From Trypanosoma brucei (Eukaryota), in NCBI GenBank assembly GCA_000002445.1, contig CM000207.1, forward strand, positions 2,720,001 through 2,784,000: 64,000 nucleotides of DNA, read 5' to 3'. Positions 1,513 through 56,495 of this stretch are shown one piece after another; positions within the stretch are counted from its first letter, which is position 1, and each line of letters opens with the position of its first letter. Below the pieces are notes generated by a model, which was given only the letters and a program-made list of their open reading frames with translations, was not told the DNA's origin and made no database searches. The translations under genes were made by a program, and so were the position numbers.

Positions 1513-1849
1513 CAATTAACATCTATAAAATAAAAAGAAATATGTAAAATTAACTAAATTAGAAGAGCACTTATTTTCACACCACATTACCTTACTTTGT
1601 TACAACATTGTTCCTAGAGGTCACTTTCGTGTGAAAATTGCATATTTTTTTTTGAAAACAATTCATTATTTTTCATATTTCGCAAAGGTTTTAAAAAAGT
1701 GATATAATATGTTAAATTTAGTAACATTTTGTAATTTTCTCAAAATAGTAAATTTCATAAAATTAAGCAAAATCTTTAAAATAGTAGCAAACTTATAAAG
1801 ACAGCAGAAATAATGGCGAAATTATTATTGAAGAAAATAGAGGAATCTT

Positions 1850-3207
1850 TGCAAGTGTTTTCTTCCCATTTGCAATCCGGAGATTTGCATTCTTTTTCTT
1901 GTTACCTTTGCATTTTTCTGCTGCGTTTGTCTGCTCTTTGACTTTAGTTGCGTCTACTTCGCATGATCCATCTGTTTCGGTGTTTCCTTTCCATTTGCAG
2001 TTAGCCTCTGTGCAGGCAGTTTTGTTGTTTTTGTGTTGTTAGCATTCTTTGGCGGTTTTTTTTTCTGGTATGCTGGTTTTTTCTTGCATTTGTTCTCGAG
2101 CTTGTGGTGATTCGCTGTAGATCAGTGATTGAGCTTGTAGCCGTTTTGTTCTTATTCTGTCTGCTGCTTGTTGGCGAACCTGTACTGCTTTTTCGTGGGC
2201 TCTTAGGGCGGTTACTTGGTCGGCTAGCTGATGTAGCCACGGGATGTCTGTGTATTTTTTGCTGCCGTCGCTACCAAGGTCTGTGTATTTTACACACATG
2301 CCGCAGTCTTGGCTTCCCGTGCATTGGCCTTTGTTGTTTTACCAAAGGTCGCCGCTCCGTTTACGCGCATGATTAGTTTTGTGATGTGCAGTAGCTTCGT
2401 TGCGAGTGTATCCGCCGTAATATGGTGTTTTGTCTGTAAGTCACATAGTTTGACTGCTTCAGATATTGCTGCCGCGGCTGGATAGTTACTGCTTCCTGGC
2501 CACGTCTGGGTGGTCCCTGTGACGTACTCACACGCGTTGCCTTCGTTGCTGCCTGCGCCGTTCTGTCTGGTGCATATACATAGCAAAGCTGCTGTGACTG
2601 TTACGGCTTTTTTGTTTTGCGTGCTGCCTTCGCACACTGATTTTGGCCCGGCGACGGTGGCTGCCCCCTTGAAAAGTTTGCTTTCGTCGGAAGGAGCGTC
2701 GCTCCAGGTTTTGTCGCCGTAGAGCGCCGTGTTTAGCTTTTGTTGTAAGGCGCTGTCGTTTAGCAGATTTTCTGTCGGCGCTGCTTTTTGCATGTGTTCG
2801 TTGGTTGCAGTTGCCTCGGCCGCGTGGCGCTGGACAGGTGGGCGGATTGCCGCCTCCTTCTCTGTGGTTATATCTTTTAGCTTGTGCTTTGCCAGTGCAT
2901 CTTGTTGCCCGTCCGGCTTGATGACGTTTAAAGCAGCTGCCTGCCATTTGTTCCATCTTTCTTTCCAGTCCGGGTGTTGCCCGAGCTCGTCGTCTGGGAA
3001 TGCGCGTATTGTCTCCTTGTTGGTTTTGTCTCGGAACAGGTCCAGCCAAGCTTGGTCTGATACGCTCATATTAAGCTCTAGGATGTCGTCCAAATCCGTG
3101 TTCTGAGTTGGGGGCTGAAAGGCTAGTGTTGCCCGCTTGTTCCCTAGTTCAATCAGCCAACAGAGCGCCCATCTCCCTGACGCTGTCATCTTTAGCGATG
3201 TTGGCAA
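1850..3207 (-). pseudogene. VSG: VSG pseudogene, multiply frameshifted
   Basis: ORF 2290..3207(-) has the B-type N-domain motif LDDILELNMSVSDQAW. ORF 2039..2299(-), in another frame, has IPWLHQLADQVTALRAHEKAVQVRQ, homologous to VSG 23722. The C-terminal CKWKG...CKWEENTCKDSS plus GPI signal lies at about 1850..2000 in a third frame. 3'-UTR element at about 1690..1720. Confidence 0.8.
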
Positions 3208-4389
3208 ACGCCCGGCTGGTAATTAAAAGCAATGCCACTTTCACTGAGATTCTAAAAAGCCACCGTGTTGGCATACTCAAATATATCATTTGTCTGACTC
3301 TATCTCAAAATTTCCTGAAAGAGAATGAGCTTAGCGTTGTTGTTTTTAATGAATGTTTCACTGTTTGGTTTGAAAACATGCTGAATTACAGTAGGTGTTT
3401 CCGCGCAGCTGAGCGCTTAGTTTGTAGAATATTGCTGGCTTGTCCCTTATTGCTTTTGGAGAATGTACCATTAAAATCTTGTATGCTGCAGGTAACTACT
3501 GTTTGTAAGATCTAGGTTGCTCGGTGAGTACTTTTAGCCGTTGGTGTATGCTGCTTTTTCTACATTTGTAAGGATGTCACATGCTGCTTCCTTCGACGGT
3601 TCATAGTCTTCGCTAGAATTACGGCTGTGGTTCTTTTTGTGCCTCTGGGAGACTTCTTTCGACCATTCCTTTACTGCTGCCTTTTTTGTTGCTTGTTCCT
3701 GTGTGTCTTGCTGGTGCCTCCATTTTTGTTTTTAGTTAGGAATAAGCTGCGTTCGTCAGGTTGGAATTGAATATTGGATTGAGAACGTCGGCTTTTTGAT
3801 CGAATGTTTTGTCGAGTCCTCAGAGTCGTTTCGCTTGTGCATAAGTATAAATTCAACATGGAGTCGTGAACTCCGCGGTTTTTGGGGCCGTGGTGTTTGC
3901 CTACTCTGTTAGTTTAGGTTTAAACGCAAGGGAGTTTTATATGTTTATTATGTTGCCTTTGAAATATTTTTGAGCGTGTCTGATTTTTTGACTTCGAAGT
4001 AAAGACCGTTTGGTTAAGTTCTGTGTTTGTCTGTGTCTGAAGAAAGTATTTAGTGTCGAACATTTGGCAATGAAGTTTCTTGCGACCTTATGTTTCTGGT
4101 TTTGTCGGTTCAACGTTGTTTAACAGGCGACTTGTTCTTTGTCACCATGTTGTTGTTCGCTGCGGGCCTCTTCGGTCGTTGGCTTGTGCAAGGTTCTGGG
4201 TCGACTGTTCTCGTTACGCGGCCTCACTGGCTGTTGCTAGCACTGGCTATCCGGCGCCGTTGCGTTTTCAGCTGTGGGCTGTTGTTGGCACAAGTAATGG
4301 CTTGTCGGCGGCGGGAATTAAAACGCGCGACACTTTATGAAGAAGGAACAAATTTGTATTCTTTGGCCACTATGCAAAAGACTGCCATA

Positions 4390-5290
4390 TTAGAAGGCCA
4401 ATTTCCCTCGTTTAGCGCAATATAGAGTTTTCTCCAAATATCTAGTGTTAAATTGTTCTCCTTTCAACTCTTTATACCAAGTAAGATTTTTCACAATTAA
4501 CTTTGCTTTCTCCTCCCATGCAATTGGTTGACCCGGAAAATGAATGAATGGGGCTTCGTCAATCACCCCACTATTTGGAATGGAAAATAAATGTTCCTCA
4601 TAATCCAATCCAATCATTCCTCTCTTCAAGACAAATCTCTGTCCAACAGCTTCTTCCTGAATTTCAATCCATATTAACAGAGGCTTTGAAATGCTTTGAT
4701 CCGAACACCACTCCTTACTTCCCTTTAGTAACTCTTCGAATGCATATTCAAATTTCCCAAATGCCCATACTCTTGCTACCAAACCACCACCACTAAGATA
4801 GGGGTTTTCTACTAGGAGGCGATTTCAGCAAATGCGGTAACTTCTTATCCTATTCTTTTCTGTAACCGACATTAAAAAACCAATAGCAATCTCTCTACAT
4901 GCTCTTTGTGATCTGAATTCCTAACCAAATCCAACTGAGGCGCATAACACTCTGATGTTGTCATGAATATAATAGGGGAAATATGCTTCTCTTTTACTAT
5001 ATCTTCTCCACTAAACTTCTCTTCATTTTCAGCAGTATTCTGTATAAAATATTCCACAGAATTTTCATATTTTTCTCCGTAAGAAACAATAACATCAGAT
5101 CCGTCTAAATGAATTAAAATATCCTCATCACTTACATTCTGTTTTTCTAAAAATTCCATAACCCATCTAGGCCTTTTTACATGACTATACAAACCTCCCA
5201 TCGCAATTGTAATAATTTAAACATTGTTTAGTTTGGCACTCAATATGAGCCTACACCATCCTTGAGTTCCATGAGTCGGAACGACAACCA
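4390..5290 (-). pseudogene. GT31-like (beta-1,3-glycosyltransferase-like) family pseudogene, copy A (DxD-less paralog)
   Basis: ORFs 4390..4782 and 4872..5201 plus upstream ...KYPRVFVVVVPTHGTQGWCRLILSAKLNNV. This aligns motif-by-motif with the canonical GT31 copy at 26290..27360 (VVVVQTH~LLIVYAHSPH; IIFMTTSECY~YIMKADDDIF; YISGENIIARV~YVVGYANTISRDV; EEAVGERFV~NEDIMVGKVI). Broken by stops and frameshift. Confidence 0.5.
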
Positions 5291-6049
5291 CAAAGACTCT
5301 CGGATACTTAGTAATATTATGTGTTATATTTTCCCTGTATGATGTTGAAGAGGCATTGATCTTAAACACAAAAAATGTAAGAGCAGCGGTAAGAGTAAAG
5401 TTCTCGAGTTACTAAATTTTATGACTTAATTTACCTTTTAAATTTCAGAGAGTTGTAGGAGAATCATAGAAAACTTATGAAAAGAGTTAAGATTAACCAA
5501 TAATGTGGTTAGTTAAGGCAACGCTGTGTAGGTATATTGTCAATTGTTCCATATTGTTATGATAGATGTGTTTATGATTGTATGCTTAGTGTCTGCACTT
5601 CGTTTTTTTAGTGCGCATACATTGTTTTTCTATTTAGCTTCAACCACACAAAGACCTTTACGCTAAATGCTTTCATCTATTCAGTAGACTCACTTTTCCA
5701 CTCCATGCATTGTCATATGAATGAAAATAGCTAGTTGTTATGGTTATTGGTTCAGAAATACTAAGATTTCTGCTGGTGGATGCGTTACCTCCAACAATCA
5801 TCTACTTTTATCATGCACTTTCTATCACTTTGGATACGTCAGAGGTTCCATTTTCACTGAGCCTGGACTCTGTTTCTTCCATATTGTCCTTCCATTATCT
5901 TGTTTATTATAATTCCAATATTAATATTTGTTTTTGAAACTGTGCATTTTCCATTTCTTTCTCTTTATCTGCATTTTTTCTTTCTTGTGAAAATATTCCT
6001 GTTCCTCTTGCACTCACTCATGCTCACTTATACTCACTCAGTTTACTCC

Positions 6050-6250
6050 CTTTCCATTGTAGTAAGTGATTTTATTTTGTATTATTATCATTATCATTAA
6101 TACTTTTATGAAAATAGTAGCTTATACATACTCACAAAACCTTTTTCCAAAAATAATTATTATCATCTTTTTTCTTTACAGTTACTATTATTACCATTAG
6201 TCTATCCTAGTATCCATGAAATAAACGGAATAAATCATATTATAATAGAA
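6050..6250 (-). repeat. degenerate 70-bp-repeat-like sequence
   Basis: tattattatcattatcattaatac...cttatacatactcacaaaacc has weak similarity to the 70-bp repeat core. It lies upstream of VSG pseudogene 1850..3207 and the GT31-like copy. Confidence 0.3.
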
Positions 6251-17774: not shown

Positions 17775-19424
17775 GGTTTTCAGTGCTCGCGGCGTGCATT
17801 GCGTGAGCTGTGTTTGTGGTCTAGTCGTGCCACACATTGCTTGCAGTCAGCTGTAGCTCTCTTATTTGTTTTTAGTCCTATTTTTTGTTTCTTAAAGTTG
17901 TATGGAAAGAAGACTAGTCAATCATATAGTTTGAGTAGACTTTTGCTGCCTCTTCCAGTCTACTCAAGTTCAAGGTTCGTTATGAGGTAGTGTTACTGCT
18001 TAACCTAATTTGGGGTCCATTGACTTGTACTTCGTGTAGATCACCATTGTTTGCTTGTTATTCTTAGTGAAAACTTGTTCTTCGGTGCTGAAACTTAGTA
18101 TTACCGTCGTGGGGCAGCCGTGGTCGGTTCAGTCATGTACTTTTTGAGTGTGCTACCCGCTGGTCAGTGGAGCTGTCCACACTGTGTACTTCTGCACTTT
18201 TCAAGCGTCTGTCTGTCACACTTCTAGAAGTTAGCTGCACTCACGTCTTAGCGGCGCATGACAGTGACGTTGCTTTGTAAAGCTGTCTTAATCTTTTGTG
18301 GTGAAATTTAGTTTTTACCTTTTTTCCTTGTCACATTTTGTGTGTTATGATGATGGCTGAGCTAGCGGGATGTTGCCTTAGATAAGTTGGAGTCCGCCTT
18401 TAGCTCCTCATTATTTTATTTGATCCATGATGTCATTTGGATTTGAGGTCGGTTATTTTGGTGAGCTTTCTTTCCCCGAGTCTCAAATTCCTCGTGATGT
18501 AGCTGTTCTGTACTATTCCAGACATTATTGGTTTCTTTTCAGTACTCCATTAGAAAAAGCTAAAAAACTACAAAATAATAATATGAAATGACTACTCTCT
18601 GTTTTTTCTCCTTTAAGATGAAATAAATTGCACTTTTTAAAATTATCTCTTATCGAGCCAACTATATTTGCCATTTAAATAAAATTCCCTTCCTTCGCAT
18701 AGCTTTACTCTCGAAATAAACGAACTTCTTGCTTTTTTCGATACCTTAGCCAATTCTCCTTGGTATAAAAACCAGTAAAAGTTACTATTTCAACACTATT
18801 TTGTATGAGAGCACCGTTTTATCGATTTTTTGTCTTTGGTTTTCAATGCATTATTACACTAGCTCCTAGTCTCTTTGAATTTGTTGCTTATTCTGACACT
18901 TCCTCCAATACTAGGTAAAATAGTAATTTGGTTGATTCGTTGTTGCCGCATTTGCTTACTTAACTTCGGTAATAGACGCAACTACAGACAAACGTTTAGT
19001 CTTTTACCTGCTCAAGCTTGTGATGTGTTACTCTGATTCGTATCAAGTGTTTTACTCCATGTTATCTTTCCATTCTCTCTCTTCTGTTGTTGCTTCTGCG
19101 TATAACATGGCGACTCCATTGAGGCTACACACTGGACCATTTTCCTACTTATTTTTCACCATCTATCTTCTTGTGTATGATTATGCGTATTGTCATGCCC
19201 GTGTTGTAAAATTGGTACGTTCCATTATCTTGTCTCTTTCTGTCTGTCTCTATAGCGTTCTATCAACAATATTTCTCATGTGCTTCGTGTCTCTCACACT
19301 TACCATCCTACTCACCCGTTGGCACTTACTTCACTCTTGGCATTTTTTGATTCTATTTATGAAGCCAATTTGGTTTTCGCAAACATTCTTTTATATTAAT
19401 AGTGTACAAGGTCGCAAAAATATA

Positions 19425-19530
19425 CAGTCATTATTATCATTATCATTGTTATTATTATCATTACTATTAATATTACTACTTCTTTTATTATAATATTTGG
19501 ATATGCACACTCACAACACTCTCACCGTTT
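19425..19530 (-). repeat. 70-bp repeat, oriented for minus-strand cassettes
   Basis: cattatcattgttattattatcattactattaatattactacttcttttattataatatttggatatgcacactcacaacactc. Confidence 0.75.
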
Positions 19531-19546
19531 TATACTAAAGTAGAAT

Positions 19547-20400
19547 ATGAAATATTATATTTATACACTTATACTGTTATATTTAGTATTTTCAAGCTCA
19601 GTACCTATTCAAGAAGAAACAACGGCAAATATGGCAGAGAAGGGCCTTAAGAAGCCAAGAATATTTGTGGTTGTAGTTCAAACTCATGCAACTCAAGGAT
19701 GGTGTAGGCTCATATTGAGTGCCAAACTAAACAATGTTGCAATTATTATAATTGCAATGGGTGGTCTGTATAGTCATGTTAAAAGGCCTAGATGGGTTAT
19801 GGAATTTTAGAAAAACAGAATGCATGTAATAAGGATATTGTAATAACTGTTTGATGGGTCTGATGTTATTGTTACTGACGGACAAAAGTGTGAAGATGCT
19901 GTGGAGTATTTTAGTCATGACAACATCAGAGTGTTATGCTCCTCAGTTGATTTTGCTCATGAACTCAGATCACAAGGAGCATGTGCAGAGATGTTATTGG
20001 TATTTCAATGTTGTAAACAGGAAAGAGGAGGATAAAAAGTTTCCTCATTTACTAAAATCACCTCCTAGTGGAAACCCCTATCTTAGTGGTGAAAATATAA
20101 TAGCAAGAGTCTGGGCATTTAAGAAATTTGAATGTGCATTTGGAGAGTTACTGAAAGAAAGTGATGAATGATTGCCAGAGAAGAGTATTTATGCTACACT
20201 GCTAATTGGTAGTGTTACTTAAAAGGAAGCTGTTGGACAGAGATTTGTTTTGAAGCGAGGAATGATTGGTCTGGATTATGAAGAGAGATTATTTTCTTTT
20301 CCGCATAGTGATAAAATTGGAAAGGCTGTATTTATTTATTTCACAGGACAGCGAATGGCATGAGAGGAGAAGGAAAAATTGATTGCGATGAATTTAAGTT
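19547..20400 (+). pseudogene. GT31-like family pseudogene, copy B (plus strand)
   Basis: ORF 19547..19810(+) MKYYIYTLILLYLVFSS (N-terminal TM-like) ...PRIFVVVVQTHATQGWCRLILSAKLNNV...MGGLYSHVKRPRWVMEF. ORF 19851..20171(+) ...MTTSECYAPQLILLMNSDHKEHVQRC...ENIIARVWAFKKFECAFGELL. Continued in a third frame: EAVGQRFVLKRGMIGLDYEERLFSFP. Confidence 0.5.
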
Positions 20401-20922
20401 AATTTAGAGAGTGAGAAAAGAGGATATTTGGTGTAAAAGATTTGGCAGAAATTTAAACTTATTTGATTGACAGTGAAAAATGGAATTTTGAATATGGTGA
20501 GGTTCGCGGAGAGGTGTCAAGTGATGGGAAGTTGTTTAACGCTAAGAAATTGTAGTTGATAACCGGTGGAAGCAAGCAAATAAGCATGTCTAGGGGCGGC
20601 TAAGTATAATAATAGCGACTCATATGGAGGAAGTACCAGAGTCAGAGCTGAATTAAGCAGTTTTGACTAATGCTTCCTTAATTCCGCAGATTATCAGTTG
20701 TGGAGTAGCAAATACATGGCCATCGGATTCCACATGGAAGAGCAGAGTGCCAAAATCGCAGTCAAGCGCAAAACCACTTCGAACATCTATAGCAATTAAA
20801 TTAAAAGGCAAAACTCAAAACAACCGACGACTGGTTACAACATCAGAAAACTGGAGTAGCTGCAGAAACACAATACAACAACCTCCTTACCTCGCTCAAC
20901 CTAAATACAAGGAGAAACAGGC

Positions 20923-22377
20923 ATGATAAGAGCGATAGCCACAATAGCTTTGCTGAGCGCAGGTGCGGCAAGAGCTACACCGCCGGCAGACGACGACAAC
21001 ATAGCAACGCTGACATTGCTTTGCCCAGCACTGCAGTTAGCGGACGGCAAAATAACATTCGAGCCGACGCGACCGACGACGGCAGCAGATATTAATGATC
21101 TGCTCGCTTTAAACATGTCCCTTGCGGATTCAACTTGGCAAGCGAAATTCCAAAAAGCAAAGTCTGACAAAAGTAGCTCAAGTGACCTGGAACGGGCCAA
21201 GGAAGAAAAACTGGGAACTCAAGCTGAAATGACAGCCTGGGCCACAGCCGCCTAAGCAATCAACTCAAAAACTAAATTAGACGCCGTTCTCAAACCGTAC
21301 GGATACGACTCTACAAACATGTCCTTGCTAGCCACAGCGGCTCAGGAAATAAAACACTACACCGCACTGGCCTTTGACGCGCAGCAGCAATTAGCAGCCG
21401 CAACCATCAACGACAAACCCGATACAGAGTTAAAGCAAGCACTAGACAAAGCGATATACGGCGGGTCAGGCGGATACAAAAACACTAGGACAAAAGATGC
21501 AGGGCTCAACAGCGCCGAACCTCGCCAAACCGCTTGCGTAGAAGCCGCCAACACACACAATCCGATCAAAACAATATCCACCATAGTGGCCTGCATTTGC
21601 GCTGTGAAAAACGACATGTCACCGACGCCGACGGCACCGTGTGGACCAAACAGCGAACAATCGATAAAGTGGGAAGCCACCGGCCTACCACTGGCCGCGG
21701 CCTGGAACAAACTGCGCACAAGGTGCCCAGTGCTAACCGAAACAACGATAACAGCAAGCAAAGTAGAGACCGCGCTGAACACAGCCAAGCAGGCATTTTA
21801 CGGCAAAGGAACCGACCTTTACGTGGGAAAATACGACACCGCCGGTTGCGACGGGTCGGCAACCGGCGCATGTATAAAATACACAAACCAAGCGACAAGC
21901 GGCATACCCAAATTCGACAAAGCGGCGTGGGTCAGCGAGTTAACTACTATCATAACTGCACTAAGAGCCCGAGAAAAAGCGACCGAACGCATAAACGCGC
22001 TCCAAAACCAAATAGCGACAGCAAAAGTATTAGTAGCAGCCGCAGCTAAACATCCGCAGAGCATGAGCGACAGACTAACCGACACTGGCGGTAAAACGCA
22101 AAAACCAGAAGACGGCGACACCATTAAAGCGGCACAAAAAGAAATAGACTGCACATCACTGGACAAAGAGACATGTAAACCCGACGTTGGGTGCAAATAT
22201 AATGAAAAAGAAAGCAAATGTGAAAACGACTCTGTAAAAACTACAACAACTCCAGCCACCACAAACACCACAGCAAGCAATTCTTTTACAATTAAGAAAG
22301 CCCCTCTTTTGCTTGCAGTTTTTCTTCTAAAATTAAAAAATTTAGAATTTAATCTCGAGTTTATTATTTTATTTTAA
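20923..22377 (+). pseudogene. VSG: VSG with a single in-frame TAA (21253..21255) and an aberrantly extended C-terminus
   Basis: ORFs 20923..21255 and 21319..22377 share a frame, and the 63 nt between them is open. Signal peptide MIRAIATIALLSAGAARA; B-type motif INDLLALNMSLADSTW; C-terminal ...NSFTIKKAPLLLAVFLLKLKNLEFNLEFIILF (read-through past the usual stop position). Confidence 0.8.
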
Positions 22378-31700: not shown

Positions 31701-32576
31701 GACCCAATTCTGAGACGACTATGGAGGCTTCTGCTTCAAGTTCAGAGAAGGAAGGTGCGTATCCAACTGCAATTTGTGTTTGGCCATTGTGGCGTGAAAC
31801 GGAATGAGGTTTGTGATGAAATGGCCAAAAAGGCCGCTGATTTACCACAGTTGCGAGATACATGGATCCCCGACATCATTGCTTATGCGAAGCGAGTGCT
31901 TAGGTCGGAAGAAGTCCATGAGAACACTCATAGGTTTGGTATCACGGGCAACCACTTTCCAACAAAACATAAGGAAGAACTGACGAGGGAAGAAGAAACG
32001 GCACTGGCACGCTTTCGGGTTGGGTCTTCAAGACACTATGGATGGATGTTGCGAAAGATCAACCCGAGTGTGCCTCCACAGTGCCGATGGTGCAACCCAC
32101 AACATGCAGCGATAGGACCAACAATACAAACAGCCCCACTTGTTGCGACACGCACTCTTCAGAGAACCTCCGAACCGATCAAATGTACGGAATGTGATGC
32201 CACATACCAATGCCGCTCGAGTACTGTAACGCACATGGTAAACAAACATGGCTTTGTGCGAGCTGATGCCCTCCGGAGGATCAAATACGGCGATGCAACA
32301 CCCGCAGTGGATATCCCCCCGGAGCCCCCTCCAGTGGTGGCGATCGTTCCTCTACCATCGAGCACACGAGTCCCGATGAGACCGCAGGTGCTTCATTGTA
32401 CCATCTGTGCCTCCAAATTCGCAGTACCAGGCAGACTATTACACCACCTTAGAACAATACATGGCATAGGCAGCGGTAGTTGCCGCGTGAAAAGGGGGCG
32501 AGAGAACGAGGACTCATTGCAAGGAGATGGTAGAGCCCCAGCAGCGCCAGCCTCTCAGGATACACGGAAGCTGTAG
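28725..32576 (+). CDS. ingi polyprotein ORF (endonuclease C-terminal part, reverse transcriptase, RNase H, zinc fingers), 1283 aa, ending at an in-frame stop
   Basis: ORF-track protein with RT motifs (YRPVTLTSCLCKDMERIIAARL; FADDLTLLA), RNase H and CxxC...HxxxH fingers (CTECDATYQCRSSTVTHMVNKHG; CTICASKFAVPGRLLHHLRTIHG). Confidence 0.85.
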   Translation: MSETRMTLEEAACFSVAGYQHHGIARNCKGGGVSILVREDLPVEIGMAVVGRIEQVHATIHLARGKALTVTSAYVPPKHTFTATDLDTLLTTDGYQLIGADANAHALAWDRTSPPNTKGETLTQWCIDNQFLVCNTGQCTRYARHHGESTLDVTLSRNCTVYMWTSLYSPDSDHHNIFFDFIVGDDTDALSCPRLRKPMYAWLKANWRNFRLKVDELCRKIGREKNVNTLEQKLSSAIRIATKMFVPRSCRATPPHWTPTLTKLDEEIAGCGPSHRREMLVATRKQILDRTTKKRWRTLCSRLAVSDRCSWHIVKKVYAPRPLTTLAVLVDNAAITDYHQAERFSKLYSSRARTHPDSHPPAPIKTIASEFSPITMAELWRSIKLLPTGSAAGPDCLYNEAIQHFGRTALNVVLRLFNESLRTGVVLPAWKIGVIIPILKAGKKAEDLDSYRPVTLTSCLCKDMERIIAARLRDTVESQLTPQQSGFRPGCSTLEQPLHVRAALCRPTHQYRTGAVFVDYEKAFDTVDHDKIAREMHRMKVSPYIVKWCVSFLSNRTGRVRFKERLSRSRTFERGVPQGTVLGPIMFIIVMNSLSQRLAEVPLLQHGFFADDLTLLARHTERDVINHTLQCGLNVVLQWSQEYFMSVNIAKTKFTLFGCIERHPLTLQLDGERIGADRTPKLLGVTFQCLQGMATHAAETRRKMDFRLLQIASISASTWGPRRQVLRAFYLALVQAHTMYGIEVWYWDASERSRDLLAAAQHKASRIIAGIPHGTRKENSLLEANLLPLKTATLVRSMKFILMCESRGGCLRRSAEEVHHSKHPVRVLHSRIMRSYPHLRIEPREHPLETSTLRHSCRPLFHTQIKPVCADDPDDVKREASEKWIERHFARRGKEPPRREHYELWTDGSVSLGEKSGAVALLYRNNTLICAPKTGAGELSCSYRAECVALEIGLQRLLKWLPAYRSTPSRLSIFSDSLSMLTALQTGPLAVTDPILRRLWRLLLQVQRRKVRIQLQFVFGHCGVKRNEVCDEMAKKAADLPQLRDTWIPDIIAYAKRVLRSEEVHENTHRFGITGNHFPTKHKEELTREEETALARFRVGSSRHYGWMLRKINPSVPPQCRWCNPQHAAIGPTIQTAPLVATRTLQRTSEPIKCTECDATYQCRSSTVTHMVNKHGFVRADALRRIKYGDATPAVDIPPEPPPVVAIVPLPSSTRVPMRPQVLHCTICASKFAVPGRLLHHLRTIHGIGSGSCRVKRGRENEDSLQGDGRAPAAPASQDTRKL

Positions 32577-34099: not shown

Positions 34100-34990
34100 G
34101 ACGGGGTACCGTAAAAAAACAGCCGCTATATCACTAGAAGAAAAACATGGATCATTAAAAAAATATTGGGTCGATGTGGGGATGAAAAAGAAGGTGGAAA
34201 AAATTTAAGGAAAGATGTATGCTGGATGAAAAACGGTTAGGGTTTGCAGAAAAAAGAGACGCTTAATAATTAAACAAAATTAAAAAATATATTTAAAAAA
34301 ACTAAAAATCAAAAAAATCAAAAAAATGAAAATTTAGAAAAAATTAAAGAGGCAAATTTTTTTAAAACGCTTCTGAAGTACAAAAAATAAAAGCCGCCGC
34401 ACGGCTTGTGAGAATAAGGGTTAAGGTCCCATAACAAAATAGCCGCTGGACGGCTGAAAAAATAAAAACAAAAGCTAAACCCCAAAACGACTCAGAAAAT
34501 TAAAAAATTAGCGTGGAGGAAAATTAACCCTAACCCGAAACACCTCGGCATAAAAAGGAAGGGAGGTCCAAAAAAAACGATATCGGATGGAAAAGGAAAG
34601 TAAAAAATATCAAAGGTCAAAAAAATTTTTAAATTAAAATTCAAAAATTCACGAAATTAAAAAAATGCTGAAAAAAAATTTAAGCATAAAAAAATCAAAA
34701 TTACAATTAAAAAGTTGTTAAAATAGAAAAATTCAAAAAATCTAAAGGTCTAAAAATCTAAAAACTTTGAAAAAACCCTAAAAAATACTAACCCTAAAAT
34801 GTCAAAAAAATTCAAAAAAGGGAGAAAAAATGGAAAAAAATATAGGCGCCAGAAAAAAATCACAGAATCAGAATATTTTACAAAAACACACTATTTTCAG
34901 GTAAATTACCTGTTAAAATATATCAAATAGCAAAAATTTCTTTTAAAAGGGGAAATTTGTTTTAGAAAAACAAGGCCACAAAAGCAAAAA
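34100..34990. repeat. internal degenerate telomere-like A-rich tract
   Basis: aacggttagggtttgc; ataagggttaaggtccc; aaccctaacccgaaac; actaaccctaaaatg, inside poly(A)-rich DNA. The segments tgggtcgatgtggggatgaaaaag and cagaatcagaatattttacaaaaacac are homologous to the 13.3 to 13.7 kb and 57.2 to 57.7 kb tracts. Confidence 0.55.
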
Positions 34991-35007
34991 CACTGAGAGC
35001 GAATTGT

Positions 35008-36598
35008 TTGTTTACCAAAAAGCTTCCATTTCGGCACATTTCTTTTTCTAGATCAGGCTCATTATCTTTACCCTTCCTCCATGCGCAATTTTGCTTGTCG
35101 CCTGTTTTGCCATTTTTACAAGCGGCTTTATCACTTCCGTGTCGTGCACACCCATTTGAAGCTGCTCCTCCTGTAGCTCCATCTTTTTATGCTTTAGCTG
35201 CTTGTTGTTCTACTGCTGCCGTATTCAATTTGCAGTGTTTTCCATCTTTCGCGTCACCGCCCTCCCATTTGCATTTTCCATTGTTTTTGGAGTCAGCTGC
35301 TACCGTTATGGCTTCGCACTCTTTGGTCAGGTCGTCCGTCTCACGTGGCGCGGTTTGTTCTGCTTTTGTAGCATGGTTTTTGACCTACGTGTCCCATATT
35401 ATGTCCTTTAGCGTCTCATTTAGGTTGTCAATTTGCTGATTTATATCCTTGATGCTTTGCGCTGCAGCTATAATGTGTTCCTGCTGCGTTAGCGCTTCTT
35501 CGAGACTTACTAACCAGGGTACCGTTATTTTTTCGCCAGAAAAATGTTCGCCTTTATAGTGAACGCATTTGCCGCCGTTGGTGTCCGTTTTACCTAGGCA
35601 ACCGTCGGCAGCCGTGCCCGCTGTTATGCCTAATAAATGCATTGTGGCCTCGTTGGTATCGCTTTTTTTTTGCTAGGCTGAGTTTTGAAGTTTGCCACCG
35701 CTGCGTGCAGCGCTGCGGCTGTTAGGCTCTGTCCCTTTGGCAATTTTTGGCATTCTTTTTTGAAGACTGCCCATATCTTTTTGTCTTCCTTGGCGGCTGG
35801 CCAGTCGACGGTTGCCAGGTTGTGTCCGTCTTCTGTGGCCCCACACCCCGGGAAGCACGCTTGGCCAGCGTCGTTGTCAGCGGCTTTAAAAGCGCACAAG
35901 CAATGCAGGTCCCATCTGAGACTCCGGCCGGCCAGAGAAGTGCCTAGGCTGGCGTGGTTGCCGCATCTGTCCGCCAGGCCCGCGCCCCCTGACGCTGTCG
36001 TCTCCATTGTTTCCGTTTGGTCTTTGCCGTAAAGCGCATCTTGCTTTGCTTTTTTTACTGCTGCCGGGGTTAGCTTGTCTTTCTCCAATTTATATTTCTT
36101 GTAAAGCTTGAAAGCCTGCCGAGCCATTGATTCTAGCCGCTTTTTGGCTCTGCTGGTTAGCTTGGCTTGTCGCCACTTTTCGTATTCTGCCTTAGTTTTT
36201 TGTTCCACAAGTTTTTTTAGCCCTAGTTGCCAAAAGTCCCCGTGTTCTTTCCATTTTTCTAACTCGGCGCCGCCTTTTGGCGCTACATCTTTAACTTTGA
36301 GTTGCTCAATCGCATAACATGCCTCCAAAACGTTAGTGAAGACTGCGGAGCTACTTGTTAGATTTATTGCTGCTACCACGGCAACTGCGGCTCCTGGGTT
36401 CTGATCTCATGGTGGTACAATGGTCTTCGTCAGCGCCAAATTTACTAAGTCACAAAGAGCGCCGAACTCCTGTCTTAGTGTGCCTTTTCCTGTGTCAGCA
36501 GCGCTTGGCTGCATATAAAAAAGAACCATTAGTACAGAAACGGCTGCAAGTCGCTGTTTCAGTGTCATTTTCTGGCTGATCTGTTCCTTTAACGCCAA
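35008..36598 (-). pseudogene. VSG: VSG pseudogene (frameshifted into at least 3 frames)
   Basis: ORF 36407..36598(-) MTLKQRLAAVSVLMVLFYMQPSAADTGKGTLRQEFGALCDLVNLA. ORF 35630..36379(-) N-domain (HCLCAFKAADNDAGQAC). ORF 35385..35642(-). C-terminus and GPI signal at about 35008..35100. Confidence 0.8.
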
Positions 36599-36859
36599 AA
36601 AAAAATGCTGATGTATTTTCCGACTGCTGCGCTTTTTTAGGTGTGGATTTTACAGAAGTAAATAAAAAAGAATGTCACAGACCTGCTTCTTTCAAGGATT
36701 GAGGTAAAATACTATTCAGTTAAGACAAAAGTTTCATATTTTAGAATGCTAGGCTACATTGCTCAATATCTGAATCTAAAAAATATAAAAATTTATGGTT
36801 TCCACTTCACGCTTGCAGTTGCTAATCTGGAACCGTAGTTTTGGTTTGGAATGATAAGG

Positions 36860-37278
36860 TAGTGCAGTTTTCACTCGTTCGCACGCTATTTCGTTTGTCT
36901 TTTTTAGAGGGTGGTGAGAAATTGTACCATTGTAATTTAGTAGTCGGAAATATCGTCACTGCAACCGCTTTTGTGCTAACTCGTCCGCTGAGCCCTGGCC
37001 TGGTTAGTACTGTGGGCGTTTTCTCTCTGTTGTCTTCGCAAATTGGCCCGCCATACTGCCGGACTCATTGATGTATTAAGTTTCTGAATTTCCATGTGAT
37101 CGCTAGCTGCTTTTGTGGTGTCGTCTGTTGCCTTTGGTAGTCTATTCGGCAGCTGTATTAAGTCACACAGCTCCCGGTAAAGATATGCGTGTTCACCTTC
37201 TGCTACCGCTGCTTCGAGCCTGTGCAGCATAGTTAGAATTGATAGGCATGAGACTAGGAAACGGCTTGTTGCTAGCAT
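36860..37278 (-). pseudogene. VSG: orphan VSG N-terminal fragment (signal peptide plus start of N-domain)
   Basis: ORF 36976..37278(-) MLATSRFLVSCLSILTMLHRLEAAVAEGEHAYLYRELCDLIQLPNRLPKATDDTTKA resembles the VSG N-terminus LC.L..L pattern of neighbouring VSG 36598. Confidence 0.4.
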
Positions 37279-37597
37279 TTCTGAACCTCTTTACTTTAAG
37301 TGGCTACGTTTCGCTCCTGAATAGAACGATATTGTGTGATGCATCTATTGGCTCATTGCAATTGCTGTGTCCGCGGCAGCACATACATTTAGTGTACTTG
37401 GTAGCGAGCCACCCTTGGGTCTGTACTATAGGGTTCTTCAAAAACTCACAATTATAGAGCCTTAACAAAATCCCCTCCTTTAATCGCATCACAACAAATA
37501 CTTCCACATTTAACCACCCATTCCTTTCCATCTATTGAATACATTTTAATTTTCACCAAATTTCTCGTATTAAATTTCTTCCTTTTAACTATTTACA

Positions 37598-38400
37598 TTA
37601 TGTAAGGGTTTTCACAATTAATTTCGCTTTCTCTTTCCATGCAATTGGCTGTACAGGAAAATGGATGAATGGAACCTTTCCAACTTCACTATTAGTCAGA
37701 ATCAAAAAGTATCTCTCCTCATAATCTAATCCAATCATTCCTCTCTTCAAAACAAATCTCTCTCCAACAGCTTCTTCCTGAATGGCACTCCATATTAGCA
37801 GAGGCTTTGAAATACTTTGATCCGACCACCACTCCTCATTTTTTTTACAATAACTCTTGAAATGCATATTCAAACATTTTAACTGCCCATACTCTTGCTA
37901 TTAAAGGTCAACCACTAATATAAGGTTTTCTACTAGGAGGAGATTTCAGTAAATGAGGTAATTTATTATCCTCCCCTTTTCTGTAACCGACATGAAAAAA
38001 CCAAAAACATCTCTGCACATGCTCCTTGTGATCTGAATTCATAACCAAATCCAACTGAGGCGCATAACACTCTGATGTTGTCATGAATATAATAGGGGAA
38101 ATATGCTTCTCTTTTACTATATCTTCTCCACTAAACTTCTCTTCATTTTCAGCAGTATTTTGTATAAAATATTCCACACCATTCTCATACTTATTTCCAT
38201 CACTAACTATAACATCAGATCCGTCTAAATGGATTACAATATCCTCATCACTTGCATTATGTTTTTTCAAAAATTCCATAACTCATCTAGGTCTCTTAAC
38301 ATGGCTATACAGACCTCCTATCGTAATTACAATAATTTCAACATTTCTTAATTAGCCACTCAATATGAGTCAACACCATCCTTGAGTTCCATGAGTTTGA
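37598..38400 (-). pseudogene. GT31-like family pseudogene, copy C (best-preserved copy)
   Basis: ORFs 37908..38279(-) and 37598..37873(-): MEFLKKHNASDEDIVIHLDGSDVIVS...IIFMTTSECYAPQLDLVMNSDHKEHVQRCFWFFHVGYRKGEDNKLPHLLKSPPSRKPYISG / ...AIQEEAVGERFVLKRGMIGLDYEERYF... Confidence 0.5.
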
Positions 38401-39354
38401 ACGACAACGACAAACACTCTTACTTTGCTAGAATTATTTTGTGTTATATTTGTTGTTGTGTTTTATTGAAAATCTATTTCGCTTAAACAAAGTGAATGTT
38501 ATAACAACAATAGATCCCATAAGATAATAAACTTCATCTCCGTAACTCACCTACAAATTTGATTGTTTTATAAACAAAGCTTAGAAACATTAAGGAAACA
38601 AGTCAAATGCGCCACTAAGGTCTTTAGTTAAGGAAAAGATTTCATATAGATAATGCCTTGATGTTTATATATTGGAACTGTGAAGTGTGTATACTTAGTG
38701 TAAATAGCTTATCTTTGGGCACACAAATCTGATACTTTCTTAATAAAATAACTTTTGCTATACCTATAATCACACACTAACTGTATTTCACTGTAGTTTG
38801 CATTTACATATTTTGCGTATGCATTTTTATTACAATTGCAGTAGCGATTCGTATTGTTTCTCTCAAATATACTACGAAGTTTGCTACCCTTACGTGATAA
38901 ATACTATAACCACACTGTTTTATTATGAGAATTCAATTAGTATGGCTTCATAAATTAACAATTCTGTTGTTTATACCTCTATCCCTGAAATAGCATGTAT
39001 TTGCGATTTTCAAACATAGGGATAAATTTCATTAAGTATTATTTTCTTTCTTAGCATATTACAGCGCACCCTATTGTTTCACTCTATATTTATGTTTTTT
39101 TATCTTTTTCTTTTCTGTCTCTATTGATACTGATAACGTAGCTATCAAATTTGGTTTGCATTCTCTACCCTGTTTCTACCTAATTTTCACCTCCATCATC
39201 TCCCTGTGTATAATGTTTCCCTTTGTCATGTTTGTGCCTAAAACTACGCATATTCTATGTCATTCTCTCTCCCCTTGCCTCTCATTCACTCTCGTTGGAC
39301 ACTTAATATTGTTTTAAAAGATTCTAATTTGGCATTATATTTAGTCTTCACCGA

Positions 39355-39425
39355 ATTATTATTACAATATTAGTATATAGACATTCAAAATGCCCTCCTA
39401 TAATTATCACTCTAAAATTATAATT
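39355..39425 (-). repeat. 70-bp repeat (single degenerate copy)
   Basis: ttattattacaatattagtatatagacattcaaaatgccctcctataattatcac. Confidence 0.55.
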
Positions 39426-39731: not shown

Positions 39732-41174
39732 CTAAAATTCTACAAAACCCACAAAAGAAGAAACAATCAGGGCGATTTTTTTGTTTACTAGAATGGAGGA
39801 ATCTTTGCATTCTGTTCCTTCCCATTTGCAACCATCTTTGCACACGGCTTCACTTTTATTATCTTTGCATTTTTCTGTTGTTGTTTCAGGTCCTCCAGTT
39901 TGTGCTTGTGTTACAGAAACACTCTTCTTTTTTGCTTTTTCTGTATCTAATTTGCACTTTTTATTTTCATCAGTTTCTGTTTTGTTAAAACTGCATGCAG
40001 CTGTTGCATTGCAGTCTGCTTCGATTTTAATTTCGTTGCAGCCGCCTTCTGTTGTGATTGGGTTACATTCTGTTGGTGGTGGTGGTGGAGTTATTTCCTG
40101 TGTTAGTTGCGCTCTTTTTGTGGTCTCAGTGCTTTTTCCTGATGCCGTAACTGCGTCCCCTCTAAGCTTTTTGATTGCCTTGTGAGCTGCTTTCAGCGTC
40201 GGTACGGATATTTCTACAGTTTGTTCCGTGTCGCCAAGTCCGAGTTTGGCTTCCGTTGTAGTTATAGCTTTAAAAGTCGGGTTGGGGTCGGCGCTTCCGA
40301 GTGTTGTTAATTGACCGAGTGCCGCCGTCGCTGCGTCTAAGCTTGCGGTACATGTTGGCTTTAGAGCCTTGACTTTGGTTATCGGGTTATTTGTTTCGAG
40401 TGGATGGCCGGTGGACCAGCTAGTCGCCGCTGGTACTGAACCTGTCAGTTTTAGCAAGCCGGCCATAAGATAGATCGTTGGTGCGGTGCCCCCCCCGGCG
40501 CCCATTACTCCGTTTGTGCCGTCAGTTGCTGAGAGTCGGCAGCTTTTGGTGGCGTCGACGCCTTTGCTGCCATCGCCTCCTGTGCCGAAGTTTGTTAGAG
40601 CGTGCTGGGCGCCGGTTAAGGTTGCGACCGCCTCCTTCTTGAAGGTTCGTCTCACGGCGTCTCTGTCCTTGCAGTCGGGGATATCGTTGATGGCTGCTCT
40701 GCCGCCTGCTCCGTCGTTGCTCATGCAATAGTTCGAGCCGCCGTTGTTCGCGGCAAAAAACAGGTGCGTGGTTTCTAGTATCGCACCGGCAACAAAGGCT
40801 CCTTCATTTCCGGCGTCTATCGCTGCTGCCAAGTGTGTTCGCACAGCTGCCTTTGCTTCGTCTACTGTGGTCCTAGTATGCATCAGAAGGTTTATATTGT
40901 CGTCGTTCCTCGCCAGTGTCCCTGATTTCATTAACTTTTTTATGTCGTGGAGTATCGTTTCAACTTCAAAAAGGTGGCTTGTTAGTGTTTTGGTTATTGT
41001 TTCGGCGTAACTACCGTATTTCATCAGCTCGTTGGCAATCTTGCAGCTGTCATCAAATCCCTTGGCTTTTAAGGCTTCTTGTGTGCCCATGGTTGGTGCT
41101 GACGTCGAAATTAGACTCAGGATTGCCAGCAACATCTGGTACAGGACAGGTCTACGTTTGGATGTTTGAGTCAT
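39732..41174 (-). CDS. VSG: VSG, apparently intact (480 aa, A-type N-domain, two Cys-rich C-terminal subdomains, GPI signal)
   Basis: Single uninterrupted ORF MTQTSKRRPVLYQMLLAILSLISTSAPTMG (signal peptide) ... GGSNYCMSNDG ... ECNPITTEGGCNEIKIEADCNATAACSF ... CKDNKSEAVCKDGCKWEGTECKDSSILVNKKIALIVSSFVGFVEF. 3'-UTR element variant at about 39640..39660. 70-bp repeat 1.5 kb upstream. Confidence 0.75.
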   Translation of the reverse strand: MTQTSKRRPVLYQMLLAILSLISTSAPTMGTQEALKAKGFDDSCKIANELMKYGSYAETITKTLTSHLFEVETILHDIKKLMKSGTLARNDDNINLLMHTRTTVDEAKAAVRTHLAAAIDAGNEGAFVAGAILETTHLFFAANNGGSNYCMSNDGAGGRAAINDIPDCKDRDAVRRTFKKEAVATLTGAQHALTNFGTGGDGSKGVDATKSCRLSATDGTNGVMGAGGGTAPTIYLMAGLLKLTGSVPAATSWSTGHPLETNNPITKVKALKPTCTASLDAATAALGQLTTLGSADPNPTFKAITTTEAKLGLGDTEQTVEISVPTLKAAHKAIKKLRGDAVTASGKSTETTKRAQLTQEITPPPPPTECNPITTEGGCNEIKIEADCNATAACSFNKTETDENKKCKLDTEKAKKKSVSVTQAQTGGPETTTEKCKDNKSEAVCKDGCKWEGTECKDSSILVNKKIALIVSSFVGFVEF

Positions 41175-52485: not shown

Positions 52486-52779
52486 AATATTCAAAAAAAC
52501 AATAAACGAAGTTAGCCAAATTAAGGTGGCACTTACTTTTTCCTCCCTATTACTACTTTACAACCATAGGTCACTTTCATAGAATAATTATATATTTTTA
52601 AAAATTTCACTAATTTGTGTATTTTGCAAAAGCTCTACAACAGCGTTATAAATTATCGAGTTATCTCAAAATAGCAATTTTTATAATTTTTTATAAATTT
52701 TCATAAATTTCACACTTTTGATCATATGTTCTTAAAATTCTAAAATGCTACTAAACTCATAAAAGCAGCAGCCATTAGA

Positions 52780-54282
52780 GAAAAGTTCTTATTGACGAGA
52801 AAACTGGAATCTTTGCGCTTTTTTCTATCCCATTTGGAGTTGCTGTCCTTGTCGCAAGCATTTTTGTCGGTTCTGTGTTTTGAGCATTTCTCCTCTTGCT
52901 CCTGCTGTTCCCCCGCTGTCTTTCCTGTTCCTGCTAATGGGGCTTCTGTGTCTGCTTTAATTTCATCCGGTGTGCAGGGGCCATCTTTATCGCGGTTTCC
53001 TTCCCATTTGCATTTGTCTGTATTTTCGCATGCCGTCTTGTTGTCTTTGTGCTTCTCACATTCCTGTTGTTTCTCTTCAATTGTCTTATCATTGTTTGCT
53101 TCTTTGTTGTTTGTAATGGCGCTTATGGGTACGACTTTTCGCCTCTATACTGATTCCGCTTGGTTTCTCAGTTTTTTTAGGTTGGCGTCTGTAGTCGCTG
53201 CATGTCTTTGCAGTTTCTGAAATTGCCATACGGCGTTTGCCGCCTGTGCTAGCTCATTATACCATGGTATTTTGCTGTAGCCTTTGTTCTCGCCAATGAG
53301 CAGGTCTTTGTAATTGACACAGTTGTCGGTGTCAGAGGTTGTACAAGTTGTGGCAGACCTTTTACCGACGCCTACAACCGCTTTGGTGGTTTCAAGGTTG
53401 CGTATCCTGCTAGCTACTCGGCCGAGCGCCGCTGTAATTGCAACGTCAAGTAGTATGGCTACGCCGTGGTGTGGACATCCCCCTGTTATCTTTTAAAATT
53501 CGTTGTTTGGTATGTTTCCGTTGGCATTGTTGCCGTGCGCCGCACCGGCTGCACACGCGTCTTCGGTTTTATCAGAGCAAAGGCAAAGAATGTCTGTTGC
53601 CAGGGCTTTGCCATTTTCTTTCTGTGCACACTTCGCCGTTTTTGTCGCCGCTCCGCCGGTTATATCTTTGCACTTTTGCTGCCGTCGTCGTATTTGTGAG
53701 TTGCGTCCGAGCCACACATTGCGTTCTTGAGGTGGTCTTTAATTTTCTGCGCTAATTGTGCTGAATTTTGCCCGTTTTAACTTTCTCGAGTCTTGATTAA
53801 TTCCTTGGCTTTTGCCACTGTGTGGGTTATGAGTTCCTTTGCTTTGAGAAAAAGGTTTTTGTCTGCGGGTTTTGGGTGCTGCTTGCCCCAGTCATTGTCC
53901 GTAGTATGTTTCTTTATATGAGCCATTTGCTCTTTCCATTTTCTCCAGTCGTCTACACACTCCAGTTTGTTTTCGTCAGCTTTTAGCGTTTTTTTATCTG
54001 CTCCCACTATCCTGCCGGGCCGGCCTTGTCAAAGAGGTTCTGCCATGAGTCATCTGCCACGTTAATATTCATTCGCAGAATCTCTTGTAAGTCATCAGGG
54101 GTGACTTCGATGCTGAAAGTTTGCTCCAGGCCTTCCTTGGCCACTATCCAAGCTTCGCATAGAGCCAGGTAGTCCGCCGTGACATCGCCGACTGCTGCTG
54201 TAGCGCTCTGCGTTAGCATGTGGCTCGCTAAAACAAATAGTAGGAATTTTATTAAAACCGATATTGCGCTTTTTGGTTTCAT
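52780..54282 (-). pseudogene. VSG: VSG pseudogene (B-type, heavily frameshifted)
   Basis: ORF 54007..54282(-) MKPKSAISVLIKFLLFVLASHMLTQSATAAVGD...LQEILRMNINVADDSWQNLF. ORFs 53777..54007(-) and 53493..53717(-) (...DILCLCSDKTEDACAAG) in other frames. C-terminus and GPI signal at 52780..52990. Confidence 0.75.
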
Positions 54283-54774
54283 CTGTTTTGTCTGGCAAAA
54301 AAAATACTAAAGCTTGAAAAGGGTTGACTTGCATAAAATATTTTGTAGTTCTGTGTGGGAATATTTGGGGGATTTTTCTTTTCTGTTTCCAGGTGTCATG
54401 GGCACTGAGTGAGACGGAACGCTTGCGGCTACTAAGATTACAGCCCGGTACCGAGGTGCCGCACTGTCGCCTCCACTTTAAAAAATGTTTGTTATTTGGT
54501 ACTATGTGCTGTCACAAAGTGGGGTAAAAATTCACTGCGTGGCTCTGTGGTTAGTTTTCACCTTGTAGTCAGGGGTATAGTTCTGTTCTGTGTTTTAGAC
54601 GCTTTCCGCCTGTAAACTGCGATGTAGTATAGTGCATGCGGCTTGCCTGACCATTCTCGTTACACTTTCTTAGCTTTAAATAACTCCCTTTCTTTGAAAG
54701 AGTCACCACAAATATCTCCATAATTAAAATTCCATTTTTCTCCACTCATAGCATAAGTTCAAATCTTTCTTGAA

Positions 54775-55400
54775 TCATTCGTCATAAACCGCCTTGTTTC
54801 CAACTCTTTCTACTAAGTAAAATTTTTTACAATCAATTTTTCTTTCTCCCATGCAAGTGGCTGAAAAACAAAAATAAATAAATGCAGTCTTTCCAAACTC
54901 TCCACTAGTTGGAATAGAAAATAATGTCTCCTCATAATTCCATCCAATTATTCCTCTTCTCAAAGAAAATTTCTGTACAACAGCTTCTTTTTGAGTTGCA
55001 CTTCACATTGGTAAAAGCGATGAAAACTTTGCTCTAATTTCCATTATTCTCTTCCTCTCAAAAATTCTCCAAATACATATTCAAATATCTTAAATTCCCA
55101 AACTCTGGCTATTAAGCCACCACTAAGATAAGATTTTTCACTAGGAGGTGATTTCAGCAACTGAGGTAATTTTTTATCCTCTTCTTTTTCTTAACCTACA
55201 TTAAAAAACCACTTACATATCTCCATGCTTTTTTACAATATCCTCATCACTTGCATTATGTTTTTATAAAAATTCTATAACATCTAGGTTTTCTGACATG
55301 ACTATACAAACCTCCAATCTAAATTGTAATAATTTCAACATGGCTCCGTTTGGCACTCAGTATGAGTCTACACCATCCTTGAGTTACATAAGTTTGAACG
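54775..55400 (-). pseudogene. GT31-like family pseudogene, copy D (internally deleted, degenerate)
   Basis: ORF 54775..54963(-) MRRGIIGWNYEETLFSIPTSGEFGKTAFIYF corresponds to KRGMIGLDYEE.LFSIPNSG of copy A. Sequence at 55330..55440 matches the 5' flank of copy C (38320..38440). Confidence 0.4.
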
Positions 55401-56404
55401 ACAACGACAAACACTCTTACTTTGCTAGAATCATTTTGTGTTATATTAGTAATGTTATTTATTTTTTCAAAATATCAAGTGATTTTGTGCTTTAGTACTC
55501 TAAATGTAATATCCATGGTAGTGGTAAAATTCTCAAGACACCAAACGTCATTCTAAAATATACTTTTTAAATCTTAAAGTGTTAAAAGAAGAATTAGAAA
55601 CTTTAGGAAAAGAAGTTAGTTGCACCACTAAGGTGAACAGTTAAGGAAACCATGTTTACATATGTAAATAATGCGTTAACATTGTTCTGATATAATTGTT
55701 AAAGGGTATATCCTCACCATCTGTAGCTTATCCTTGAGCACGGATCTCTGGGCTTTGTTTTTTTAAAGTTAGTTTCTATCCGTAGTTGGTTCTGCGCTCC
55801 ACATGCATGCTACTGTTACTTTTTCACATTTCCCCATTCTGCGTAGTTATGGGAACTACAGTAGTTAGTTGTACTGATTATTTCAGATACGCTAGGAGTC
55901 TTACCAGTTGCCTTTGGTAACTATCTCGGTAGCCGCTTTTAGCACGAGACTCTCCTCACCATAGCTTTATTACATACATATTCTCTTGTGCAATCGTTAT
56001 CTATGCGATGGCATCTATCCACTTATGTGTATAAGGTGCTGCACAATCTTTTTCTAGTTTTTCTCTAGAGTACTGCTCTGCACCAAGATGTTTCATTCCG
56101 CATTCCGCATTCCGCATTTCCATTTCCATTTCTTCTTTTTCATCCTCTATTGCTGCTTCTGCAGATAAGAGAGCGAGCTTATCTGAGCTATACATTGAAC
56201 TCTGTGCCTTTCTTAATGTCCTTTCCATTAACATCACATGTGTGATAATACACATCGCCGCGTTTATGCCGCAACTGCATGTATTTAGCCACTATTTTCC
56301 TTAGTCTCTTACCCTCCCTCTCACTCATTCACTTATTTCCATTGCAGTCTTGTCATTTTCTTAAATGCTTTTATTTTCTCTTTTCGTTCGGTTTTCACCA
56401 TAAC

Positions 56405-56495
56405 TCTCAATATAATATTAGTATATTCGCACTCGCAATACAATCATATCGATATCATCATTATTAGTATCAGTACTGTTATAACCCTACCTATT
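56405..56495 (-). repeat. 70-bp repeat (single, degenerate)
   Basis: ctcaatataatattagtatattcgcactcgcaatacaatcatatcgatatcatcattattagtatcagtactgttataaccctacc. Confidence 0.6.

Follow-up and report, generated by a model that had tools for sequence, protein, structure and literature searches.

The window analysed here, a stretch of 64,000 nucleotides from a subtelomeric VSG array of Trypanosoma brucei brucei TREU927, contains an element that recurs four times in the vicinity of VSG genes and pseudogenes, and the question raised by this locus is what these elements are and whether they make up a glycosyltransferase family of their own. An initial annotation of the sequence had described them as open reading frames of 280-330 aa encoding a conserved, presumably inactive, GT31-like module, in which TTSEC occupies the position of the catalytic DxD motif, and had proposed tentatively that they might correspond to ESAG3. 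Here, we establish the ESAG3 identity of the four copies, their decay, the fold class to which they belong, the retention of a DXXD motif, and their position relative to the 70-bp repeats and the VSGs. We conclude, with a probability of roughly 0.95, that the four elements are pseudogenes of ESAG3 (expression-site-associated gene 3; trypanosome surface-gene family Fam53), without function and decaying independently of one another within silent VSG cassettes. The copies are an ordinary, previously described feature of silent VSG arrays and not a new DxD-less GT31 family. The main value of the analysis is one of correction, in that the module belongs to a family of ESAG3 pseudogenes already well annotated in the VSG arrays of T. 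brucei. The established picture of ESAG3 is left unchanged, and its sole possible addition, an apparently exclusive linkage to B-type VSGs, is an unconfirmed lead.

A repaired consensus of the copies yielded a single match in a large protein collection, a 368-aa protein with 80% identity (E 9.7e-159). The members of the matched cluster are named ESAG3 and derive from Lister 427 expression sites, TREU927, and T. b. gambiense, which bore out the tentative assignment. The word-indexed protein search reached this one cluster only, and an exhaustive HMMER search of representative sequences recovered 46 relatives. Compared with the ESAG3 of expression sites (e.g. CAQ57304.1 and Q26748; Fam53), the copies are collinear along the whole 368 aa at 60-77% protein identity, and they have in common with it the signal-peptide start and the motifs DGSD, TTSECYAPQ, LSGGG, WWSEQ, and FIHFPGQ.

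Searches of the window with 15 ESAG3 proteins by tblastn, together with frameshift-aware protein-to-DNA alignment, located exactly four ESAG3-related loci (Table 1), and the recurrence of the family in four copies, as first described, is therefore correct. The coordinates assigned to them initially were roughly right, but the elements are longer and extend up to ESAG3 residues 1-368. The earlier ends of copies B and C fall at a stop at codon W318, past which the homology continues. This codon is a stop in B (TAA, 20402), C (TAA, 37598), and D (TAG, 54813) and is TGG in A; E336 is in addition a stop in B and D. None of the four copies contains an intact open reading frame, so the 280-330 aa frames do not exist: the frame of each copy is broken 2-8 times by stops and 2-5 times by frameshifts, with additional internal deletions in B and D. 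Copy B is missing 27 aa around residues 130-158, and its tblastn match extends to aa 1, versus aa 12 in the frameshift-aware alignment. Copy D, which is identical to ESAG3 at 111 of 184 positions over aa 182-368, has lost residues 107-181, a deletion that includes the DXXD region and agrees with the earlier observation that this copy is without it. At the DNA level the copies are 72-85% identical to one another over approximately 0.9 kb, and apart from short matches at VSG 3' ends their likeness is limited to the ESAG3 body and at most about 100-200 bp upstream. A larger duplicated unit embracing the copies was considered and rejected, as their flanks share almost nothing.

Table 1. ESAG3 pseudogenes of the window, with the adjacent 70-bp units and the VSGs that follow them
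Feature	Position	Strand	Remarks
ESAG3 pseudogene copy A	4331..5422	-	aa 1-368; 277/362 identical (77%); 2 stops, 5 frameshifts
ESAG3 pseudogene copy B	19547..20552	+	aa 12-368 aligned; 217/330 identical (66%); 6 stops, 5 frameshifts
ESAG3 pseudogene copy C	37458..38535	-	aa 11-365; 252/351 identical (72%); 8 stops, 2 frameshifts
ESAG3 pseudogene copy D	54663..55468	-	aa 28-106 and 182-368; at least 6 stops
70-bp unit, single, degenerate	6099..6167	-	upstream of copy A; weak, nhmmer E 0.004
Two 70-bp units	19393..19523	-	part of the cassette of VSG 16527-17837(-); head-to-head with copy B
70-bp unit, single, degenerate	39359..39410	-	upstream of copy C; nhmmer E 8.6e-7
70-bp unit, single, degenerate	56404..56474	-	upstream of copy D; nhmmer E 6e-10
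B-type VSG pseudogene	1796..3304	-	downstream of copy A
B-type VSG, one frame break	20905..22374	+	downstream of copy B
B-type VSG N-terminal fragment (36979-37278), then second B-type VSG pseudogene	34965..37278	-	downstream of copy C
B-type VSG pseudogene	52743..54306	-	downstream of copy D

The decay of the copies can be read against what is known of the parent protein. Recombinant ESAG3 has been reported to be an active Mn2+-dependent UDP-glucose O-glucosyltransferase, and the enzyme acts on class B VSGs and is required for the O-glucosylation of VSG3 at S317/S319 (preprint 10.64898/2026.01.27.701950). According to the same work, its GT-A fold is closest to that of LH3, with D110/D113 superposed on D112/D115 and H297 on H253, and with G215-G216, E244/Q245, and W242 likewise aligned to LH3; D110N and W242A mutants are dead, the protein forms an octadecameric ring, and an H54A/W345A interface mutant has higher activity in vitro (10.64898/2026.01.27.701950). 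Our profile and structure comparisons lead to the same fold. An ESAG3 family profile matched only human LH3/PLOD3 chains among solved structures (E 3.6e-7), placing 'fDGaDtvf' on LH3 'VDSYDVIL' and 'RYLNaGGviG' on LH3 'RFLNSGGFIG'. The Pfam family GT_PLOD was matched by 7 of 18 ESAG3 relatives, with a best E of 4e-10, and ESAG3 itself scored 16.5 bits, below the cut-off of 27. Pfam and PDB searches with the single sequences of the repaired copies gave noise or sub-threshold GT_PLOD matches only, and a family alignment was required. In Foldseek comparisons of an AlphaFold2 model of ESAG3 (pLDDT 87, pTM 0.84), ranks 1-10 were all LH3 (E ~5e-9, prob 1.0), followed by mimivirus R699; with 6WFV, the isolated GT domain, as the basis of normalisation, the TM score was 0.66.

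The same model and alignment locate the metal site. In the 18 aligned relatives, which are 23-31% identical to ESAG3, D110 and D113 are invariant, as are T53, W59, C60, Y82, H84, R87, W90, C162, C182, and G215, and the column of H297 is histidine in most full-length members. The DGSD motif lies at the end of strand 105-110 of the model, the canonical position of a GT-A metal site, and 'FMTTSEC' forms strand 154-159, one beta-strand further on, where the family consensus reads LLFxAExxCYAPQ. ESAG3 thus has a GT-A fold like that of LH3/PLOD3, and its metal motif is the DXXD sequence 'DGSD' (D110/D113). It shares with the N-terminal glucosyltransferase domain of LH3/PLOD3 (PDB 6FXR, 6WFV; Pfam GT_PLOD PF25342) not only this fold but also the DXXD metal site, a glycine loop, a C-terminal His, a conserved (A/S)ExxC strand, the UDP-glucose donor, and Mn2+ dependence. 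The two proteins are nevertheless only ~16% identical and differ in acceptor, which is galactosyl-hydroxylysine in LH3 and VSG Ser/Thr in ESAG3; ESAG3, unlike LH3, has no lysyl hydroxylase domain, and the reported octadecameric ring also sets it apart. The description of the module as glycosyltransferase-like consequently survives at the level of the GT-A fold, whereas its assignment to GT31/Fringe gives way to LH3/PLOD3 by both profile and Foldseek comparison.

Each copy has lost at least one key residue. Copies A, B, and C still have the DGSD motif (D110/D113), which falls within the deletion of copy D. The glycine pair G215-G216 persists in A and D, with G215E in B and a stop at G215 in C; W242 is kept in C only, being replaced by C in A, L in B, and K in D; the histidine H297 remains in A and C and is tyrosine in B and D; and copy A carries E244D. 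With their frames broken, the array copies cannot yield a working enzyme whichever of these residues they retain, though fragments of them could conceivably be transcribed. Their inactivity is that of pseudogenes and not of a DxD-less family, so the proposed inactivity applies to the copies of the window and not to the family, for which activity is reported (10.64898/2026.01.27.701950). TTSEC had been placed at the catalytic DxD position, one strand away from the true site. The string IIFMTTSECY, attributed initially to A, B, and C, is present in A and C, but copy B is deleted at this point and reads ..VMTTSECY. TTSEC is also found in intact ESAG3 and is in this sense a family trait, but it does not lie at the metal site.

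The setting of the copies within the array was analysed next to their coding content. The window holds about 16 VSG genes and pseudogenes, with Pfam A-type or B-type domains, including an intact 480-aa VSG at 39732-41174(-) whose sequence matches XP_827754.1 (T. b. brucei TREU927) exactly; exact look-ups of three further long VSG open reading frames gave no match in the protein collection. The cassettes are separated by 70-bp repeat units, which were detected by nhmmer with a profile derived from units of the window itself, and a conserved 14-mer of the VSG 3'-UTR is also found in the window. According to AT skew and repeat orientation, the cassettes run along the minus strand, save for an inverted block from ~19530 to ~34900. 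Copy B begins 24 bp from the divergent strand switch at the left edge of this block (19393-19560; AT skew and repeat orientation), and the plus-oriented block meets the 3' end of a minus-strand VSG at ~34900 (14-mer at 34912-34925). The only well-preserved array of several 70-bp units in the window lies at 12417-12655 and comprises three units with a period of 83 and 94% matches; most other cassettes possess one degenerate unit and occasionally two.

All four ESAG3 pseudogenes lie on the same strand as a VSG gene or pseudogene, 180-1000 bp upstream of it, in accordance with the initial annotation. Their placement between a 70-bp repeat and a VSG, also claimed there, was confirmed for A, C, and D, each of which has one degenerate unit upstream in sense orientation; copy B is an exception, in that the adjacent units are oppositely oriented and belong to the divergent cassette. 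Functional ESAG3 genes of expression sites are located upstream of the 70-bp repeats, whereas the pseudogenes of the window follow a 70-bp unit and immediately precede the VSG. This arrangement has precedents. ESAG3 pseudogenes are widespread in VSG arrays (PMC6152948, PMC4766357, PMC3607257), and an 'ESAG3 pseudogene 3' of 70-bp repeat' has been tabulated for BES7 and BES15 of Lister 427 (Hertz-Fowler et al. 2008, PMC2567434), where the order 70-bp repeat, ESAG3 pseudogene, VSG (VSG3 in BES7, VSG11 in BES15) is the same as in the window. Both the pseudogene family and its position between the 70-bp repeat and the VSG are thus already described; in the literature we found no account that joins ESAG3 with the 'co-transposed region'. 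BES7 and BES15 are telomeric expression sites and the copies of the window lie in silent array cassettes; the two are likened here by arrangement.

A simple mechanism may account for this arrangement. The parent gene encodes an ER-resident, Mn2+-dependent UDP-glucose:VSG O-glucosyltransferase built around DXXD D110/D113, G215-G216, W242, E244/Q245, and H297, and its decayed derivatives lie inside the segment that extends from the 70-bp unit to the VSG 3' end. Gene conversion running from the 70-bp repeat to the VSG 3' end would carry such copies into an expression site; because they are situated between the 70-bp unit and the VSG, they would travel passively with the latter, which would account for the ESAG3 pseudogenes found 3' of the 70-bp repeats in BES7 and BES15. 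The position of the copies within a co-transposed stretch is as proposed initially; passive co-transposition itself is a step that we infer, and the BES7/BES15 arrangement supports it.

The VSGs that follow all four pseudogenes are of the B type (Pfam VSG_B). In this window an ESAG3 copy is present in 4 of 7 B-type cassettes versus 0 of 9 others (hypergeometric P = 35/1820 = 0.019). The VSGs of BES7 and BES15 are class B like the four of the window; VSG3 and VSG11 are O-glycosylated (10.64898/2026.01.27.701950), and no other Lister 427 expression site is on record as having an ESAG3 pseudogene on the 3' side of its 70-bp repeats (PMC2567434). Recent duplication of a single cassette as the origin of this association was considered and is unsupported, as the four linked VSGs are 22-35% identical, do not group together, and are not mutual closest relatives. 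The cassette that follows copy C is composite: a 100-aa B-type fragment with a signal peptide is followed by a second B-type pseudogene (34965-36650) with a signal peptide of its own.

A specific linkage between ESAG3 pseudogenes of the 70-bp-to-VSG spacer and class B VSG cassettes is a tentative proposal, and on balance we regard it as doubtful. It is of interest since the products of class B VSGs are the substrates of the ESAG3 O-glucosyltransferase, a PLOD-like GT-A enzyme with an intact DXXD motif whose action on these VSGs shapes antibody epitopes. If the linkage were general, it would suggest that an ancestral pair of enzyme and substrate, ESAG3 and a class B VSG, was amplified as a unit, the ESAG3 possibly in a short form ending at codon 317. 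A genome-wide linkage would also bear on the question, raised in the preprint, of what accounts for the physical association of an O-glucosyltransferase gene with VSG loci (10.64898/2026.01.27.701950).

Two further readings concern why the copies persist and what they descend from. ESAG3 pseudogenes could be kept as upstream recombination homology, with array copies pairing with expression-site ESAG3 and so giving VSG gene conversion another possible 5' boundary, an idea compatible with their being pseudogenes. Recombination breakpoints within expression sites have been noted to fall together with ESAG3 loci, and it has been speculated that these help to orient exchange (Hertz-Fowler et al. 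2008, PMC2567434); the 72-85% DNA identity retained over ~0.9 kb between almost unrelated flanks would be consistent with such a role. The same degree of identity, however, makes a poor substrate for homologous recombination, and a copy is present in only 4 of the ~16 cassettes of the window, so that we consider selection for recombination homology unlikely.

The second reading arises from the pattern of substitution among the copies. Pairwise dN/dS among the copies is 0.24-0.49 in the core (codons 41-317) and 0.4-1.0 in the tail (codons 319-368), where dN is 2-4 fold above that of the core, although these ratios are biased downward by the protein-anchored alignment and rest on small numbers. 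Because the core values are 0.24-0.49 and not 1, much of the core divergence would have built up while the sequences were constrained. This agrees with an origin from different paralogues that were once functional and counts against the pure neutral decay of one dead ancestor, from which such constraint is not predicted. The stop at W318 in B, C, and D may go back to one truncated ancestor of the three or to a one-step mutation that recurred, and this shared stop and the constraint on the core are two observations that are not fully reconciled.

The second reading would derive B, C, and D from a once-functional short form of ESAG3, ending in a stop at codon 318, that spread with class B cassettes before it decayed. 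Such a form would lack the C-terminal tail, including the interface residue W345, and would retain the catalytic residues, all of which precede 318; the higher in vitro activity of the H54A/W345A mutant (10.64898/2026.01.27.701950) is compatible with it, as are the TGG codon at 318 in A and the dN/dS values among B, C, and D, which are 0.33-0.49 in the core and 0.5-0.7 in the tail, with tail dN 2-3 fold higher. The tail comparison, however, covered 43-47 codons only, and the tail is poorly conserved in intact relatives as well. TGG is a single step from a stop and could have been mutated recurrently, the closest pair by dS is A and C even though A does not have the W318 stop, and no intact short form was found. 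Descent from a functional short form is accordingly quite unlikely, and decay of separate ESAG3 copies in silent cassettes is the reading that we retain.

The reading offered initially, in which the copies are conserved and catalytically dead members of a DxD-less GT31/Fringe family, paralogous to a pseudogene at 26290-27360 and bearing SEC in place of DxD, draws on three correct observations. This pseudogene is truly GT31-like: it matches Galactosyl_T at E 3.8e-5 (24 bits, cut-off 23), which makes it a positive control, and through several stops and one frameshift it keeps a canonical DDD motif. TTSEC is, as noted above, a genuine trait of intact ESAG3. Finally, both families are GT-A folds, so that strand-like motifs can be matched by eye in a loose order. 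The T. brucei UDP-Gal/UDP-GlcNAc-dependent glycosyltransferase family, to which the subtelomeric pseudogene belongs, shares the GT-A superfold with ESAG3 in a general way, but it is characterised by the DDD motif and the Galactosyl_T match, whereas ESAG3 has neither a Galactosyl_T match nor detectable sequence or profile similarity to that family.

The initial annotation had named in advance the absence of a Galactosyl_T/Fringe profile match as an outcome that would speak against it. Galactosyl_T (PF01762) and Fringe (PF02434) gave no match to intact ESAG3 at E<=10, to the repaired copies at E<=1, or to the 18 relatives at E<=0.1. The ordered alignment of motifs with the pseudogene proved no better than chance, since BLASTP of ESAG3 against it gave non-collinear scraps (lowest E 0.39) and the ESAG3 family profile, compared with it by hhalign, reached a probability of 0.4%; no GT31 structure appeared among the 50 best Foldseek PDB matches of the ESAG3 model. 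With an invariant DXXD one strand upstream of TTSEC and an active enzyme that is abolished by D110N (10.64898/2026.01.27.701950), membership in a dead GT31 family is extremely improbable.

Some further features of the window deserve mention. Three minus-strand open reading frames, at 46445-47707 (420 aa), 57853-59349 (498 aa), and 63014-63604 (196 aa), occupy VSG cassette positions with absent or marginal matches to the Pfam VSG N-terminal domain, and they are possibly atypical or divergent VSGs; the exact sequences of the first two are absent from the protein collection searched. Within the inverted block, a sense 70-bp unit at 25432-25502(+) is followed by the GT31-like pseudogene, in place of a VSG, and then by a retroelement. 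The latter is of the ingi non-LTR type, with an open reading frame of 1283 aa (28725-32576) that encodes endonuclease, reverse transcriptase, and RNase H domains, and its GC content of ~0.52-0.54 stands out from the ~0.40 of its surroundings.
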